A DNA stretch of 10,984 bases, taken from assembly GCA_003133025.1 (NCBI GenBank), contig PKZK01000011.1, positions 1-10,984 on the forward strand. The letters run 5' to 3'. Below are positions 1 through 10,661 of the stretch, piece after piece. Under the pieces are notes generated by a model. That model saw nothing but the letters and a program-made list of their open reading frames with translations, ran no database searches and was not told where the DNA came from. The position numbers were made by a program, and so were the translations under genes. Numbering within the stretch: the stretch's first letter is position 1; each line of letters opens with the position of its first letter. Origin of the DNA: Vulcanimicrobiota bacterium. GTDB taxonomy: Bacteria > Vulcanimicrobiota > Vulcanimicrobiia > Vulcanimicrobiales > Vulcanimicrobiaceae.

Positions 1-48
1 GTGCTACCCGGCTTCGTCCTCAACCTGGCCGCAATTTTCGCCCGCTAG
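1..48 (+). CDS. 3' end (partial, runs off window start) of a Uma2-family (PD-(D/E)xK, DUF820) endonuclease gene
   Basis: Frame 1 reads VLPGFVLNLAAIFAR-stop(TAG 46-48), the typical Uma2 C-terminus. It aligns codon for codon with VLPGFVLELGPIFND-stop at 3373-3420 (20 of the first 21 nt identical). Confidence 0.8.
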   Translation: MLPGFVLNLAAIFAR

Positions 49-1993: not shown

Positions 1994-3001
1994 TCAATAC
2001 ACCGGTCCGACGCCTTGCACCGTGATCGAGCCCGACGTGACGTGCACGTTCTTGGCTTTGAACGTCGTCGGGTCGATGCGCCAGAGGCCCGTCCCGCTTG
2101 CTGCGAAGCACGCGTGAGACGCCGGGTCCACCGCGAGGTTGTAGGGTTCGGCGATATTTCCAACTGACGCCACGGTCGCATACGTCGACGCGCTGATCGC
2201 CGTGACCCCATTCCCTGTTGCCAGGTAGATGAGTTGCGATGCAGGGTCGAACGCAATGTCGTCGGCTTCGCTGTTGAGAGCGATCCGTTTCACGAGCTTT
2301 TTCCCCGCGACGCTCACCACATCGAGGTAACCGGTGAGGTCGGCAAGGTACAGCAGTTTCCCGTCGCTCGAGACGGCGCCGGCCATCGGGAATTCGGGCA
2401 GCGACACGTCGTACTTGAAGGCAAACGTCTTCGCATCGAAAACGTCATAGCCGCTACCCTCGATCTCGTACAACTCGTTACGAGTCGGCGAGGCCACGAG
2501 CAAGTGGTACCCCAGGGTAAAGCCCCCGAGGCCGGCCGCAGACGCCTCGAGCGCACCGGTCGCAGCGTTGACCACGTAGTCGTCGCTCTCCCCGCCGACG
2601 TAGAGCGTCATTCCATCCTGGCTCAGCGCAATCGCTCCGGTAAAATCGCCGTTGGGCAGGGTGAAGAAGTTCGTGGCCGCTCCCGTCCGAGGATCCATCG
2701 CGAACACGATGCCCGAAGCGTTCTCCTCGATGGCATAAACGAGCTTGGTGGCGGGCGACGCCACGATGGCTATGGAGTCTTCGTTGCCGTTCTGCGACGG
2801 CGGCATCTGCTGCTGCGACCGGACCCGCCCGTTCGCGGCGTTTCCGATCGTGAGTTCGGCCGGCTGGCCGCTACTCTGCAGGGCAAAAGCCACGAGATCG
2901 CCGTGGCCGAGCGTGGCTGCGCCGACGGTGGCGGAAGGGACCGAAGCGGTACCGAGCAGCACCGCCATCATGGTCAGGGTGGCGAATGTGGGGCGTTTCA
3001 T
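1994..3001 (-). CDS. Secreted YncE/YVTN-like beta-propeller protein, 335 aa
   Basis: Signal peptide MKRPTFATLTMMAVLLGTASVPSA; ~40-aa blade repeats (IVASPATKLVYA, IALSQDGMTLYV, LVASPTRNELYE, AVSSDGKLLYL, IAFDPASQLIYL, LAVDPASHACF). Confidence 0.85.
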   Translation of the reverse strand: MKRPTFATLTMMAVLLGTASVPSATVGAATLGHGDLVAFALQSSGQPAELTIGNAANGRVRSQQQMPPSQNGNEDSIAIVASPATKLVYAIEENASGIVFAMDPRTGAATNFFTLPNGDFTGAIALSQDGMTLYVGGESDDYVVNAATGALEASAAGLGGFTLGYHLLVASPTRNELYEIEGSGYDVFDAKTFAFKYDVSLPEFPMAGAVSSDGKLLYLADLTGYLDVVSVAGKKLVKRIALNSEADDIAFDPASQLIYLATGNGVTAISASTYATVASVGNIAEPYNLAVDPASHACFAASGTGLWRIDPTTFKAKNVHVTSGSITVQGVGPVY

Positions 3002-3039
3002 GGCGCTATCGTATCAGCCCGCCGTTCCGGGATCGTCCC
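3002..3039 (-). promoter_or_regulatory. Putative leaderless extended -10 promoter with 11-bp-periodic direct repeats
   Basis: Minus strand: GGGACG(3039-3034) atccc GGAACG(3028-3023) gcgggcTGa TACGAT(3013-3008) agcgcc ATG(3001). TGn-TAnnnT lies 6 nt before the ATG; there is no Shine-Dalgarno. Confidence 0.65.
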
Positions 3040-3054
3040 AGCCCCGAGAGCCCC

Positions 3055-3420
3055 CTTGAGTCGAACGAAGGCTTGGAGCTACCCGACTCATCCATAAAAG
3101 CGGCAGACGCTGCCTGGATTCTCCTGGAACGTTGGCGACGACTCAGCAAGAACGAGCGGGCGTCCTTTGCCCCAATCTGCCCCGACTTTGTCAGTGAGCT
3201 ACGCTCCGCCGGCGACAGCATGTCGGCCCTGCGTCAGAGGATGGCCCTGTACCTCGACAACGGTGTACGCCTTGGTTGGCTCATCGACCCATATGCGCGA
3301 CGCGTCGAGATTTTCCGTGCCGGTCGAGAAGTCGAAGTGCTGCTCGACCCCGCAACGGTCTCCGGCGATGACGTGCTACCCGGTTTCGTCCTCGAGCTCG
3401 GCCCCATTTTCAACGACTAG
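3055..3420 (+). pseudogene. 5'-truncated Uma2-family endonuclease
   Basis: Homology begins at LESNEGLELPDSSIKAADAAW and continues PICPDFVSELRS...YLDNGVRLGWLIDP...SGDDVLPGFVLEL. The N-terminal third of a Uma2 protein is missing, and the called ORF start (2986) overlaps the divergent gene and its promoter. Confidence 0.8.
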
Positions 3421-4320: not shown

Positions 4321-5910
4321 TTACGAGTCGTCGCCCCCGTTTTCGGTGCCGCCGGTCTTCGCTTGCCGGGGCTTTGCCGTGGCCTGGTAGGTCCAGTCGT
4401 AATCGAAGCGAGCCTGGAAGTATGCGTTGACCTGCGCGCTCTCGATGATCACGCCCGCGTCACGATTGCGCAGCACGCCCGCACCCGACCAGTTTTGGCT
4501 GCTCACCACCGTCCGGACGCCGTCGACGAGCATCCCCTTATTGTGCACGTTGTTCTGAATGCGAACGTGAGCGCGATCGACGAGCATTCCGGCCTCTTGC
4601 ATCAGTTCGAGGTTCTCCGACTGCTGGTTATTGCCGAGGATGATCCGCGTAACGATGGCCTCGTTGTGTTGTACCCTGGCCAACGCCGCGATCAGGTCGG
4701 CAAACTTGGGGTCGGCGGCAAAGGAATTGATGTACTGCAACTGCAGGTCGAAGGAACGCTGCGTCCCGTTGATCAGGTCGAGTATGGCATCGACGTAGAC
4801 GCCGGCATCCGGCGTCAAGAGCGGCGTCACGGTGACGCTCTCGGTGAGCGTGATCGGCCCGACGAACTCGTCGATTGGCGATGCGGCCGGCGGCGGGGGC
4901 GGCAACGCCTCGACGATCGCATGCGCGCGCGCGGCATTGGCATTTTCCGCCTGAGCGACGTCGAAGTCGTGCTCGATGAAGCTCGCGAACCATGCGGCGA
5001 GCTCTTGGCTGAAGAAGACTACATGCCAATCGCGATCGCTCTTGCGTGCCAATGTCTTATCCGGGTTCGTCCAGTCGAACACGGGCTGGTTGGAGTTATT
5101 CCAGTTGCCCGACGAGATCCACACGCCGACGGTCGTCCGACCGATGTCGCGGGCCGAGACCTTGATATGGTAGGAAGTCTGGAAGATCGGCGTACCCCCG
5201 TCGGGGTCGCTCGGGGTCAGCGCCCATGTTTGCGTAAACGTGCTCCCGAGGGCCGAGGTCAATTTCGCGACCGTCTCTTCGTCGGTCTCGTCGGCAGTGG
5301 GGTTTTTCGGCGGGTGGTCGAGCACGAGCTTGAAGGGCTTACCCTCGAGCGACGTAGCCACGGTCTGCTCGATGTGCGCCGATGTGAAGTCGTACATCGC
5401 GGTCGTCAGCGACGCGCTCGTCGCTTGGATGAATGCTTCCAGAACGCTCCAGCCGTTATCCGGGCTGCAGCTACAGATCATCGTTACGTTCGTTAGTTGT
5501 ATGGGATCGTAGTTGGCGCCCGGCGGCGGCGTGTAGACGATGCCCGGCGCGGCCTCGACCGGCACGGCAAGCGGCGCGACGCCTTCACGCAAGAGGACGA
5601 GTCCGGGAAAGTCGTCGGGAACCGATTCGGCGAGCGAGAAGCGCGCCTTATCGGCGAAGGCGGCTGGTTGCGTGAACTGCATGATCTGCGCCGGAGTCGC
5701 CATGCGTACGTCGATGGGAAAGCCGCCGAGACTATCGGGCACACTGGCTAACGCGACGTTTGGATCGGCGATGAGAACGACGGCTCGAGTCTGTGTCGGA
5801 TACCCGTCTTCATCCAGCATGAATCCGGGGCGCGCGGCGAGTGCGCCGGTGGCGCGGAGAGCGTCGATGTTCTGAGAAATGACCGGTATGATGTCGCCGA
5901 AGTAAGACAT
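4321..5910 (-). CDS. Phospholipase D-superfamily protein with two HKD motifs, 529 aa
   Basis: HIKVSARD...SSGNW and HNKGMLVD...SSQNW motifs. Preferred start is ATG 5910 (MSYFGD) with GGAGA 5 nt upstream, rather than TTG 5940. No signal peptide. Confidence 0.9.
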   Translation of the reverse strand: MSYFGDIIPVISQNIDALRATGALAARPGFMLDEDGYPTQTRAVVLIADPNVALASVPDSLGGFPIDVRMATPAQIMQFTQPAAFADKARFSLAESVPDDFPGLVLLREGVAPLAVPVEAAPGIVYTPPPGANYDPIQLTNVTMICSCSPDNGWSVLEAFIQATSASLTTAMYDFTSAHIEQTVATSLEGKPFKLVLDHPPKNPTADETDEETVAKLTSALGSTFTQTWALTPSDPDGGTPIFQTSYHIKVSARDIGRTTVGVWISSGNWNNSNQPVFDWTNPDKTLARKSDRDWHVVFFSQELAAWFASFIEHDFDVAQAENANAARAHAIVEALPPPPPAASPIDEFVGPITLTESVTVTPLLTPDAGVYVDAILDLINGTQRSFDLQLQYINSFAADPKFADLIAALARVQHNEAIVTRIILGNNQQSENLELMQEAGMLVDRAHVRIQNNVHNKGMLVDGVRTVVSSQNWSGAGVLRNRDAGVIIESAQVNAYFQARFDYDWTYQATAKPRQAKTGGTENGGDDS

Positions 5911-6014
5911 GACGTCTCCAATCGCGCAAGCGATACTCAAGGACGGTCTGCGAAAGTGGAATGCAGGTCGTCAATTGCGGGTCACCATCTTCGGCGCCTG
6001 CAGTAAAGCGGCCC

Positions 6015-6048
6015 ATTATGCGACGGGCTTCTTAAGCGCCGCTTAAGA
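6015..6048 (-). promoter_or_regulatory. Palindromic TTAA-N7-TTAA operator plus CATAAT -10 upstream of the PLD gene
   Basis: Perfect inverted repeat TCTTAAGCG-C-CGCTTAAGA (6030-6048). On the minus strand CATAAT (6020-6015) lies 11 nt after the second TTAA. Confidence 0.65.
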
Positions 6049-6125
6049 TAGCAGACGATACTGTTAGCACGTGTTCGGCGCTCCGAATCCTTGCCGATGT
6101 CGGCCGAACGCGTGAACGCCGGCGA

Positions 6126-7655
6126 TCAGAGTCGCGCCAGAAATGCAGCCGCACTCTCGGCGATGCGTTGGCGCTCGTCGGCCGCGAACTTATCGTAAGT
6201 CCGGACCATTTGCGCCATGCGCGGATTCCCTCCGATCCTAGCGCGATTCCGGTTGATGAAATCCCAGTACAGCGCATTGAACGGACAAGCTCGCTCACCG
6301 CTCCGCTGCTTCACGTCGTAATGGCACGACCCGCAGTAGTTCGACATCCGGTTGATATACGCTCCGCTAGCCGCATAGGGCTTCGATGCCAGCAAGCCGC
6401 CGTCGGCGAACTGGCTCATACCCACAGTATTCGGCAACTCGACCCACTCGTACGCATCCGCGTAGACGCTCAGATACCACTCATGCAGCGCGTACGGGTC
6501 GATCCCCGCGAGCATCGCGAAGTTCCCCGTCACCATCAAGCGCTGGATGTGATGCGCGTAGGCAAGCTCTTTCGTCTGCGTCACCGCGGCCCTAACGCAA
6601 GCCATGTCAGTCTCGGCCGTCCAGTAGAACTCGGGCAACGCTCGCGCGTGGCTGAAGAAGTTGCTCCGCTCGTACCCGGGCATCTTCAGCCAATAGATCC
6701 CGCGCACGTATTCGCGCCACCCGATGATCTGGCGGATGAATCCCTCTGCGGCGTTCAGGGGCACCTTTCCCGCACGGTACGCGACCTCAACCTGCCGGCA
6801 GACGCGCAGCGGATCGAGTAATCCACAGTTGAGATACTGCGCGATGACGGAGTGGTAGAGGAATGGCTCACCGCGCAACATGGCATCCTGAAAGTCGCCG
6901 AACCTCGGGAGCGCTTCGTCGACGAAGGCCGCAAACGACGCCTCCGCGTCGGCCCGCGTAACCGCTACACCGAACGGCAATAGGTCTCCGAAGTGATCGC
7001 CGAACCGCGCCTCGACGAGTGCCAACACCTCTTCGGTGATGGCATCGGGTGGACACCCGATGGGTCGAGGCATGAAGAGCGACGGGTCCGCCGGCTTGCG
7101 GTTCTCGCTATCGAAATTCCACGTACCGCCCGCCGGCTGATCGCCGTCCATGAGAAGCCCAGTCCGGCGGCGCATGTCGCGATAGAAGTACTCCATGCGC
7201 AACTGCTTGCGCCCGGCCGCCCAAACCGCGAACTCACCATGCGAGCACAGAAAGCGATCGTCCGGCAGAATATCGACCGGCAGCCCAAAGAGGTCGCGCC
7301 AGCTACGGATCATCTCGGAAACGCGCCACTCGCCGGCTTCCGTGACGACGATTCTTTCCGGACGGTGCTCCGCGACGGCGTCCGCAAGTTGCTCGGTGAA
7401 GCTCGCCCGATTCTCTGCCGCGCCGAGCCTCACGTAGTCGACACTCCATCCCCTCGCCCGCAAGTCTTCGGCAAAATGCCGCATGGCGGAGAAGAGAAAT
7501 GCGATCTTTTTCTTGTGGTGGCGCACATAGGTCGCTTCATCGTGAAGCTCGGCCATCAGGACGCGGTCTCGTGACGGATCTGCCGCCGACAAGCTGGAGA
7601 CAGCGGGCGTCAGTTGATCGCCCAGCACGAGGATAAGATTGCGAACCCCAGTCAT
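6126..7655 (-). CDS. phrB: FeS-cluster bacterial cryptochrome/(6-4) photolyase (FeS-BCP, PhrB/CryB family), 509 aa
   Basis: LGDQL, HHKKKI, MEYFYR.MRR, WNFD.ENR, YAHHIQRLM..GN, DAYEWVELPN and KPYAASG.YINRMS motifs, plus four Fe-S cysteines (DMAC, YCGSC, ACPF). Colinear with Agrobacterium PhrB as I recall it. Confidence 0.95.
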   Translation of the reverse strand: MTGVRNLILVLGDQLTPAVSSLSAADPSRDRVLMAELHDEATYVRHHKKKIAFLFSAMRHFAEDLRARGWSVDYVRLGAAENRASFTEQLADAVAEHRPERIVVTEAGEWRVSEMIRSWRDLFGLPVDILPDDRFLCSHGEFAVWAAGRKQLRMEYFYRDMRRRTGLLMDGDQPAGGTWNFDSENRKPADPSLFMPRPIGCPPDAITEEVLALVEARFGDHFGDLLPFGVAVTRADAEASFAAFVDEALPRFGDFQDAMLRGEPFLYHSVIAQYLNCGLLDPLRVCRQVEVAYRAGKVPLNAAEGFIRQIIGWREYVRGIYWLKMPGYERSNFFSHARALPEFYWTAETDMACVRAAVTQTKELAYAHHIQRLMVTGNFAMLAGIDPYALHEWYLSVYADAYEWVELPNTVGMSQFADGGLLASKPYAASGAYINRMSNYCGSCHYDVKQRSGERACPFNALYWDFINRNRARIGGNPRMAQMVRTYDKFAADERQRIAESAAAFLARL

Positions 7656-7656
7656 C

Positions 7657-7720
7657 GCTTCTCCGGGACGTCTCCGAGCAGTGCTACACTGTTCGGCGGC
7701 TTCTGCGCCAGCACTTTGAC
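7657..7720 (-). pseudogene. Possible decayed DUF2256 remnant immediately upstream of the photolyase
   Basis: Minus frame reads WRR(7710-7702)...V*HCSETSRRS(7689-7657) versus the family consensus WRKKW....VKYCSERCRR. K>stop, Y>H and C>S are each single-base changes. DUF2256 commonly neighbours photolyase genes. Confidence 0.45.
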
Positions 7721-7853
7721 GCCACCCGCGTCTCGCGTGGCCCTGGCGCCGTAGTGACGCCGACCCGATCCCAGGGAACGTGGCAAAAAACGGGAGCCCG
7801 AAACTGAGCCAAACGTTGCCGGCAGGTAACGATGCCCTAAACCATTAAATAGC

Positions 7854-7886
7854 GTTAACCGCCGGTTAACCCCCGGCCCTGATAAT
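7854..7886 (+). promoter_or_regulatory. Palindromic TTAA-N7-TTAA operator plus GATAAT -10 upstream of the large secreted gene
   Basis: Perfect inverted repeat GTTAACCG-C-CGGTTAAC (7854-7870). GATAAT (7881-7886) lies 11 nt after the second TTAA; an extra TTAA is at 7845-7848. Confidence 0.65.
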
Positions 7887-7964
7887 CGCGGTGGTGTACC
7901 GCCTCCGTACGTCCCGGGCTAAGAGCCGGGCCGCCCTCTGCATCGTTCGTTTGGAGCATAAGCC

Positions 7965-10661
7965 TTGAAGCGACTGTCGCTACAGCGTCTGCCGGCTTTG
8001 CTACTGTTAATCGCAGTAGCTGGAGGGACCGCGCTCGTCGGATGGTCGGGGCGAACTAGTGCCGCCGTTATATCCGGGGTGTCGCCCAACGGCGGTGTAC
8101 TCAGCGTTCGTGGCCGTAACGCGGCGCTGGACATTGGCTACGCCGCCAACGACGCGACCGCAGGCGCGTCGCTCTCGCTTACGCTTGAAAGCGCGACATC
8201 GGGCATACCGCTCACGCCGAGCGGAGTGCCCGTCCTAGCGGCGCAGGTCGATGTCGGCGGCGGCCGCATCGTTACGTTTACTGACCTGCCACCTACGTCG
8301 ACGCTCCGGTCTGCCGCGCTGCGAGCGGGCGTCGATTATTCGATGTACTCGTTCGTAGGCGGCAAGCCCGTCGGGGTTCCGTACGATGCGGGCGTGCCGC
8401 TCGAGGGCTCGCTGCGCTTCCCGTCGCCGCTCAGAAACCTCTCGCTCTCGCCGGGCACGCCGCTTTTGATCGTGGTCGTCGCCGGAGCGAAGATCGCGCA
8501 CGAACCTGCAGCAATGACGACCATGCCGCTCGCGGCCGGCGGTGCGACCTTGTCGCTGCCGGAATACGCTTCGTTCGGCGGCTCTCTGGACTATGCGGCC
8601 AACGACGGACGCCGCAACAATCTGACGCTGGTGAACACCGGCAGCCTCAACGCGACAAACGCCCTCGTACCGCCGCTCGAGAAGACCCTGCTGTTTCTGG
8701 AACTGCATGTCGACGGAACCCGGGCAGTTAGCTTCGCGCCGACCGTGTCGGGCCCGGGACTGATGTTCGCGTCTGCGCTGCCGAACCTGAGGTTGCACTC
8801 ACCGCTCCTAGCTCCGGGCGTCGTCTACGACGCATTTGTTTTCGCCGGCGGCCAGCTCGTCGAAACGGGCAGCGCCGCAGCGTCGGCGAGTGGGGCTTTG
8901 ACGCTTCCGTCTCCGCTCAGCGATGCCCGAGTCGCGCCGGGAATGCCGATCGTCATCGAGCTCGCAACCGCACTCGCGTCGCCCCAGAGCACACTCGACG
9001 AATCGACTGGCGAGCCGTCGCTTCCCGAGAAAAACAACACGCAGAAACTCGCGCCCGCGGGCGGCACGATCCGAGCGATTAGCTACGGGGGATTCCAAGG
9101 CACGTTCCCCTACGCGCCAAACAACGCGCCGTCGGGCGTGACGTTGACCCTGACCAACAGCGGTCAGTACGACCAGTTCAACGCCCCGACACCCCCCGGC
9201 ACGACGGCGCTCCTCTTCCTGGCCGCCCAGGTGAGCGGCACGCAGACGATCGAGTTCGGCACGTCGTCGCTCACCGCATCGATTTCGTCGAGCACGCTAG
9301 TTGCCGGAACGTCATACACGCTCTATCTCTACGAGGCGGGCACGCAGACCGGCCTGGTCGAGACAAGCGCTGCCACCAAGGGCGGCATGGTGAAGTTCTC
9401 GACCCCGCTGCAAAGCGTCTCGATCGCGCCTGGAACACCGTTGGTCCTGGAACTGGTCACAAATAGCGCGCCAACGCCCACTCCGACTCCGAGCCCGACG
9501 CCGTCGCCGACTCCGAGCCCGACGCCGTCGCCAACTCCGAGCCCGACGCCGTCGCCAACTCCGAGCCCGACGCCGTCGCCAACTCCGAGCCCTACTCCCA
9601 GCCCCACTCCAACTCCGACGAATGCGCCGCCGGGTCAGTTCACGCTGTATAACCTGCCATCGCCGCTCGCCGACCCTCTAGGAATTACAGTGGGCTCGGA
9701 CGGGAACCTATGGTTTAGCGGCGGCTACACCTATGTGGGCTCGGTGACGACAGTCGGCGAGTTTAATGCGTATAAGCTCCCAACAGGGAGTTCTAATCCC
9801 GAGGGAATCACTAGCGGTCCGGACGGAAACCTTTGGTTCGCGCTAACGGGCTCTAGTCAGATTGGAGTGATTACCACAGGCGGCCAGGTTACGATTTATC
9901 AGATCCCGACTGCGGATAGCCAACCGGTTGGTATCACTTCCGGGCCTGATGGTAACCTGTGGTTCACAGAATTGAACGTTTCGAAGATAGGCAAGGTTAC
10001 TACATCAGGACAGTTTACCGAATATACCATTCCTACGGCCTCCAGTTATCCGCAGTTCATCGTGACTGGGCCCGACGGCAACTTGTGGTTCACGGAGGCG
10101 TCTGCAAACAAGATTGGCACCGTCACGACATCCGGTCAGTTTACCGAGTACCCGATCCCCTCTCCGAATAGCTACCCGCTCGGGATAGCCTCCGGGCCCG
10201 ATGGCAATATCTGGTTTACTGAGCCGAACACCAACAAGATCGGCAAAGTCAGCACCTCCGGCCAATTCACCGAGTACTCGACTCCGACGGCGAACAGCGG
10301 TCCGCAAGGTATCGCGGCCGGGCCAGACGGCAACGTTTGGTTCTGCGAAGGAAACGTCGGGAAGATCGGTGTCGTGACGCCGGGAGGCCAGTTCACGGAA
10401 TATCTTGTGCCGGGTGGAGGGTTTCCGTTTCAAATTGCCCTTGGGCCTGACGAAGCAATGTGGTTTACTGCCGCGAGCAATCCCAGTGGCGAAGTTGGTC
10501 GCGTTACCACCGGATTGACTCAGCAGCTGAGAAAACAGACGCACCTGGTAACGCCCGTTCCGCGACGCGCCGGCTTCTTGGAAAATGAGCCGCCGCGGGC
10601 TGCGCTAACCGCGATTCTTGGGCCGACGAGTCCGCTCATCCAACTCTTGGATCCCAGTTGA
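7965..10661 (+). CDS. Large secreted/surface protein, 898 aa: three repeated beta-rich domains, Pro/Thr/Ser linker, Vgb-like seven-bladed beta-propeller
   Basis: TTG start with GGAG at 7953-7956; N-terminal signal peptide; three ~140-aa repeats; (TPSP)n linker; seven 42-aa G(P/S)DGN(L/I/V)WF-type blades at about 9633-10514. Confidence 0.9.
9486..9592 (+). repeat. In-frame 24-bp tandem repeat (about 4.5 copies) encoding TPSPTPSP
   Basis: Unit ACTCCGAGCCCGACGCCGTCGCC(G/A) starts at 9486, 9510, 9534 and 9558, with a partial copy at 9582. Confidence 0.95.

Follow-up and report, generated by a model that had tools for sequence, protein, structure and literature searches.

Two short boxes in the genome of a bacterium of the phylum Eremiobacterota (Vulcanimicrobiota) are predicted to be Pho boxes, sites at which the regulator PhoB would activate a pair of outward-facing promoters. 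They lie in the window, the whole stretch of 10,984 nucleotides that was analysed, and face a gene for a PLD-like enzyme and a gene for an 898 amino acid residue protein. Taken as a whole, this reading is likely, and is held with good confidence. Its parts differ in strength. That the TTAA-N7-TTAA motif is a Pho box and a predicted PhoB site is highly likely from the sequence comparisons; the PLD gene is a probable true target, and the 898-residue gene a fairly probable one.

By analogy with known PhoB and SphR biology, PhoR would phosphorylate PhoB when phosphate is scarce. PhoB would then bind the 11-bp TTAA units head to tail over a -35 region that has no TTGACA, recruit sigma-70 polymerase, and so switch on both outward promoters. 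The PLD-like phosphodiesterase might let the cell reclaim phosphorus from its own phospholipids or nucleic acids, and the 898-residue protein might be one of several exported regulon proteins without known activity. These last two steps are the weakest of the scheme.

The two boxes and their predicted promoters

The first box occupies positions 6046-6032 on the minus strand and faces the PLD gene. It reads TTAA GCGGCGC TTAA, which may also be written CTTAAG-N5-CTTAAG. The hexamer CATAAT follows 11 nt past the box (6020-6015, minus); it resembles a -10 element by pattern only, and would place the start of transcription near 6008. The second box lies at 7855-7869 on the plus strand, faces the 898-residue gene, and reads TTAA CCGCCGG TTAA, or GTTAAC-N5-GTTAAC. 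Here the hexamer 11 nt further on is GATAAT (7881-7886, plus), likewise -10-like by pattern only, with a predicted start near 7893. Palindromes of 19 bp (6030-6048) and 17 bp (7854-7870) cover the two boxes. A first-pass annotation of this DNA had described the boxes, the 11-nt gaps and the palindromes, and all of them are present.

These are the only two copies of TTAA-N7-TTAA in the window. Shuffled versions contain 0.01 copies on average, and none of 200 reaches two. No TTGACA-type sigma-70 promoter was found within the window, which fits the expectation for activator-dependent promoters. In both boxes, the spacer between the TTAA units occupies the position where a -35 hexamer would sit.

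Each window box has two TTAA units, compared with at least three in one description of the SphR box (PMC1906773) and two to four in another (PMC13226834). Two-unit boxes are also found at the pit and phoU sites of related genomes, where they are the norm.

Several other features lie near the boxes. A GTAA-N7-CTAA pair and a further TTAA are located at window positions 7826-7848, just 5' of box 2 and out of phase with it; they may belong to the photolyase promoter. An intrinsic terminator was called weakly at site 2, on the minus strand, and none was called at site 1; terminator calls number 11 versus 8.6 expected. A dif/Xer site was considered at the GCATAA beside box 1 and rejected, since the second arm is absent (judged by eye). 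In four RNA runs, available as assembled contigs and including two runs with identical records, short pieces match the 898-residue and photolyase genes; no contig from these runs lies on the PLD gene or on either promoter.

Because TTAA is self-complementary, every such box looks roughly palindromic, and direction is given by the -10. The spacer is also palindromic in both window boxes, and in none of the seven other exact boxes of the genome. Among the boxes of relatives, 3 of 136 have palindromic spacers, which is the intergenic background of 2.2%. The palindromes and their “compensatory” flanks had been proposed as a feature of the regulon; at this background rate in relatives they do not hold up as one, and the double occurrence is probably chance. 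An alternative is that the palindromes matter, either as head-to-head dimer operators or as scars that recombination or insertion left on either side of the photolyase gene. A palindromic spacer has only about a 2% chance per site, yet occurs at both sites; moreover, the two boxes carry CGCCG in the same genomic orientation and are identical at 13 of 15 positions, and site 1 folds as a hairpin (z -3.0). Against this, the hairpin at site 2 reaches a z of only -0.9, relatives show no excess over background, and no similarity is seen by eye outside the two boxes. A scar origin would also leave the two N11 -10 hexamers unexplained. Such a role for the palindromes is very improbable.

Motif, targets and regulator in the class

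The host genome has 3.35 Mb at 66% GC and is 80% complete. Pairs of TTAA peak at a gap of N7 with nine cases, compared with three or fewer at any other gap from 0 to 29. As a bare 15-mer, TTAA-N7-TTAA occurs nine times versus four for a reversed-word control, and in several relatives it does not exceed the control (for instance 9 versus 32 in G002). The case for a Pho box therefore rests on architecture and targets.

The full pattern, TTAA-N7-TTAA-N11 followed by a -10, is found in 93 of 121 genomes of the class, with 152 matches versus 38 for a hand-counted control. Variants with other gaps are scarcer: N10 has 44 matches in 36 of the 121 genomes, and N12 has 60 in 48. Within the host genome, eight intergenic boxes with at most one mismatch are followed by a -10-like hexamer at a distance of 9 to 12 nt, and in six of them the gap is 11 nt, with intergenic status taken from a simple in-house gene caller. 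The genome-wide scan that the first-pass annotation had proposed thus yields further intergenic sites with this spacing, and extends the pattern to most of the class. Since the class genomes are related to one another, these counts are not independent samples. The tallies of the full pattern, of N12, of PhoB orthologs and of triple arrays include the unpublished genomes G030 and G049, as do two of the ten PstS targets given below; the conclusions are independent of both.

The same spacing appears in longer arrays. At 16 Eremiobacterota phoBR loci and that of the host, the last in-phase unit is followed by xAxxxT at a distance of exactly 11 nt in 17 of 21 arrays; spacing was not used in their selection, and the -10 was assigned by pattern only. 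Triple arrays are mostly found near phoB, with 52 of the 66 distinct ones no more than 6 kb away from it. A supposed “N8 TATGCT” class of promoter at pstS was discarded, as it consists of a fourth degenerate unit followed by N11.

Phosphate genes provide the clearest examples of the box. In the host, a four-unit TTAA array stands directly before pstS2 in the phoBR-pst operon. Exact TTAA-N7-TTAA is present in all 16 Eremiobacterota phoBR loci. Boxes are likewise present at all four further loci where pst genes lie beside phoBR, and none was seen at four of four phoBR loci without adjacent pst genes. In the host, phoB, phoU and pstS1 all lack a box of one mismatch or fewer in the adjoining 350 nt, and by the same measure 14 of 15 phosphoesterase-like genes checked there have none.

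Downstream of N11 sites in the class, 93 annotated genes were collected. They include 25 canonical phosphate genes (PstS 10, PstB 1, Pit 5, PhoU 1, phosphoesterase 8), 16 porins of one family (4 by OprD match, 11 by BLAST and one incomplete, by eye) and 14 TonB receptors. The remaining 38 are other or unassigned genes that are not obviously phosphate-related. The 93 genes come from 94 of the 152 matches, covering 30 loci returned by the scan and 60 picked by hand, with most repeats of the porin site skipped; because loci were partly hand-picked, these proportions are not a random sample.

Some members of this set deserve separate mention. The OprD-like porin family is the commonest boxed gene beside phoBR (L124, L129, L139, L287, L330:2889-4298), and some of these porins carry a copper-amine-oxidase N-terminal domain; the family is likely the phosphate porin of the phylum. 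In the host, a LuxR-type response regulator lies between two boxes (G000:C125:2073-2859, L002) that point at a PstS-like protein and at an operon in which a TonB receptor is joined by two lipoprotein-like genes, both uncharacterised. G079 has a comparable regulator after an N11 site (L274), and such regulators are a possible second tier of the regulon. N11 sites also precede genes that are not obviously phosphate genes, namely STAS-domain genes in two genomes and threonyl-tRNA synthetase genes, one identified by Pfam and one by eye (in the set L111, L112, L135, L313). Family f2 (G013, G014, G015) has PhoB and PhoR, and TTAA-N7-TTAA occurs there 0, 0 and 1 times genome-wide. In this family and in G058 PhoB is present, with no pst genes or boxes beside phoBR. 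The Pho regulon of family f2 may be reduced or recoded.

A position-weight matrix was trained on 39 phosphate-gene sites, all from other genomes, and gives 15 hits above 12 bits in the host. Its top eight rows are a TonB receptor, pstS2, box 2, a phosphoesterase, a PstS-like gene, pstS2 on the other strand, box 1 and a phosphoesterase; pit is among the lower-ranked hits. Box 2 scores 26.3 (rank 3 in the genome) and box 1 scores 20.5 (rank 7). As the training sites were selected by pattern, these ranks partly reflect the exact TTAA units. On the unconstrained columns the two boxes score -4.6 and 1.2, low to middling within the leave-one-out range of -11.5 to 17.8 (median 4.6).

The candidate regulator is encoded on contig C264, at the head of an operon that also encodes a PhoR-like kinase and contains pstC, pstA, pstB and two pstS genes. 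Its closest relatives are in Vulcanimicrobiota/Eremiobacterota genomes, at 77-85% identity. It reaches 228 of the 296 bits required by the TIGR02154 PhoB model, so the name PhoB is given because of the operon context. A single PhoB ortholog is present in each of the 121 class genomes. All 16 Eremiobacterota orthologs retain the helix HVRWLREK. The local protein is 42% identical to a Synechococcus regulator, presumably SphR, that fits the PhoB model best and has the HxRWLREK helix in common with it.

Among 64 more distant regulator loci, only one has W at this helix position (L063, Dehalococcoidia). This PhoB adjoins pst genes with four- and three-unit TTAA arrays, which suggests at the sequence level that the TTAA code may extend to Chloroflexota. 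The code also occurs without the RW helix: at two Paenibacillus loci (L076, L077), TTAA arrays of four units lie close to an OmpR-family pair whose helix differs, and these loci would represent a separate TTAA-reading regulator.

The first-pass annotation had proposed that one OmpR/PhoB-type regulator acts on activator-dependent promoters in a host outside the Alphaproteobacteria. The sites do look like such promoters, and the search it suggested for OmpR-family regulators found ten proteins similar to PhoB in the genome, one of them linked to phoR and pst. Its lead toward CtrA does not hold. The idea of a cell-cycle regulon, in which the boxes would be bound by CtrA or an ortholog of it, draws on the fact that TTAA-N7-TTAA near the -35 is the CtrA full motif (PMC4287350). 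The reading fails because the host belongs to Eremiobacterota, the best regulator reaches 187 of the 350 bits required by the CtrA model, and no match to ChpT (PF10090) was found in this 80% complete genome; both searches do exceed their cut-offs in one control genome. In addition, the targets are phosphate genes, and none of the 93 belongs to a flagellar, pilus or division family (one is an MCP). Binding by CtrA is therefore extremely improbable.

A second OmpR-family regulator with overlapping TTAA specificity, for envelope stress or a similar function, is a more serious alternative for the two-unit boxes, though an unlikely one. The genome's ten PhoB-like proteins offer candidates, and site 1, read as CTTAAG-N5-CTTAAG 10 nt before the -10, presumably resembles PmrA and CiaR boxes. 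Three exact boxes in the host have no -10 at N11 (G000:C246:3416, C229:16380 and C109:26289), and boxes with one mismatch recur elsewhere, at six of the 28 other spy loci and at two of the six DUF1800 loci. Against this, none of these 28 spy and 6 DUF1800 loci has an exact box. No box lies within 1.5 kb of 30 OmpR DNA-binding domains in five relatives, a range that stops short of the far side of phoR and so leaves five phoB loci blank as well. The phosphate genes have the same N11 geometry as both window sites, and at pit and phoU two units are usual.

The neighbours of the three boxes without an N11 hexamer are a spy-RND operon with a 396-aa exported protein, a DUF1800-DUF1501 pair and a 70-aa orphan; another regulator-kinase pair also lies by these three boxes.

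The genes at the two boxes

The PLD gene (4321..5910, minus) encodes a 529-residue enzyme of the PLD superfamily, which has two HKD motifs and, at its N-terminus, an additional domain. Its start is most likely the ATG at 5910, as indicated by the alignment and by a GGAG 6 nt upstream, rather than the TTG at 5940. The motifs H248-K250-D255 and H456-K458-D463 are both invariant across 115 sequences, and no obvious signal peptide is seen by eye. The structural model (pLDDT 92.7) has the PLD fold, with a Foldseek E-value of 3.5e-17 to 7e0m. It has the two HKD motifs and this fold in common with Streptomyces and other bacterial PLD, the PLD3/PLD4 nucleases and phosphatidylserine synthase, and differs from the solved superfamily structures listed in its extra domain and its identity of 10-15%. 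Because its structural neighbours at this identity are a mixture of lipases, nucleases and a synthase, these activities are not distinguishable, and phosphorus recycling is a best guess. In Burkholderia glumae, a PLD-like protein is strongly enriched under phosphate limitation, according to PMC13700237; homology to the window family is not implied.

Orthologs of the PLD gene number seven in 400 genomes of the phylum, and boxes are found at three of them, one facing away. In G293, the gap of 67 nt upstream of the ortholog contains the triple array TTAA-ATAA-TTAA, and the ortholog adjoins a phosphoesterase with its own exact box; the ortholog in G175 has a box with one mismatch. In neither genome is the last unit followed by a -10 at N11. 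The exact box in G334 lies in a gap that the ortholog shares with a divergent TonB gene; its -10 is on the side of the TonB gene, which the box more likely serves. The other four orthologs have none. Metagenome homologs at 36-46% identity, which have no assigned taxon and would tell little if they belonged to other phyla, have an exact box at 0 of 70 loci and a one-mismatch box at 1 of 70 (78 loci listed, minus 8 with less than 200 nt upstream; L171-L172 left out). The closest homolog is P0002, at 70% identity, and the set P0002-P0009 spans 53-70%. In G400:C464 (L258), a PLD homolog lies within an open frame of 1756 codons, fused to other domains.

The second candidate target (7965..10661, plus) encodes a predicted exported protein. 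Its 898 residues comprise a hydrophobic N-terminus, approximately 470 residues without a Pfam family, a Pro-Thr/Ser linker and a Vgb-lyase-like beta-propeller. The 470-residue region is partly common to other Eremiobacterota proteins. Searches with the N-terminus gave no Pfam family, no Atlas match and no similarity to 90 box-target loci. No true ortholog of the gene was found, and loci with partial homologs of the N-terminus have a box in 0 of 29 cases.

This poor conservation of the box at orthologs of the window genes is a reason to consider that PhoB binds while one or both promoters are silent or incidental, the PLD and 898-residue genes not being phosphate-regulated in practice. Confirmed PHO boxes do exist at genes without obvious phosphate regulation, as reported in PMC4415409. 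However, exact units, an exact N11 gap, a near-consensus -10 and the correct orientation occur twice in the window. A box with one mismatch or better within 300 nt is also rare, found at only 32 of 3065 genes of the host, compared with 3 of 7 PLD orthologs. Silent or incidental promoters are quite improbable.

The 509-residue photolyase-related protein (PF04244; 6126..7655, minus) is encoded between both boxes. It was rejected as a target, as box 2 lacks an N11 -10 in the direction of this gene and a box is present in 0 of 3 homolog loci. Elsewhere in the window, a Uma2-family gene fragment occupies 2986-3420, and its C-terminal end closely repeats window 1-47, which suggests that a Uma2 piece was duplicated.

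Relation to known Pho systems

The closest parallel is the cyanobacterial SphR box of the SphS-SphR system in Synechocystis. It is described as CTTAACCT with a 3-bp linker in at least three units (PMC1906773), or as YTTAAYYW in 2 to 4 copies at or upstream of the -35 (PMC13226834). TTAA-core units and the 11-bp period are common to both systems, and 2 to 4 copies stand before pstS and phosphatases (PMC1906773 and PMC13226834). The boxes described here differ in their flanks ([CG]TTAAN, not YTTAAYYW), in their phylum and in the fixed 11-nt gap to the -10, and PF04185 phosphoesterases, Pit, OprD-like porins and TonB receptors are among their predicted targets.

In E. coli, two 11-bp direct-repeat units lie just 5' of the -10 (PMC4415409, PMC1906773), and phosphorylated PhoB binds such 11-nt units head to tail and recruits polymerase (PMC4415409). 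Linkage of phoBR with pst, and PstSCAB, PhoU and porin targets, are further likenesses. The E. coli unit is CTGTCAT and the unit here TTAA; in addition, the regulator here is below the TIGR02154 cut-off, and no box was found upstream of phoB in the host. The CtrA full motif has the identical TTAA-N7-TTAA core near the -35 and an OmpR-family binder (PMC4287350), whereas arrays here reach three or four units and precede phosphate genes, with no CtrA or ChpT found.

The first-pass annotation had suggested an unrecognised regulon. A motif common to the class does exist, and the regulon can be named as a Pho regulon with a box of the SphR type from its pstS, pstB, pit, phoU, phosphoesterase and porin genes. 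No description of a Pho box or PhoB regulon in Eremiobacterota was found among the matches listed, with subscription papers and regulon databases outside the scope. This is a known kind of system in a new phylum, and the two targets are likely new ones.

A wider view is put forward tentatively, at somewhat less than even confidence: Eremiobacterota, cyanobacteria and at least some Chloroflexota may share a probably old TTAA/RWLREK Pho system with a strict N11 rule. The window would add two new kinds of member to it: a widespread, uncharacterised cytoplasmic PLD family for phosphorus recycling, and a surface protein with a beta-propeller that is specific to the lineage.

In its regulatory logic, the system follows the textbook. 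TTAA-N7-TTAA outside the Alphaproteobacteria should not be taken as CtrA, and an uncharacterised PLD family with more than 1000 homologs gains a testable role. The phylum is mostly uncultured and abounds in soils poor in nutrients and in peat, and the result gives it a Pho-box rule that can be put to use: TTAA units recur every 11 bp, and the -10 comes exactly 11 nt later. By this rule, phosphorus-scavenging genes would be predictable from the DNA sequence alone, among them porins, TonB receptors and exported proteins without a known function.
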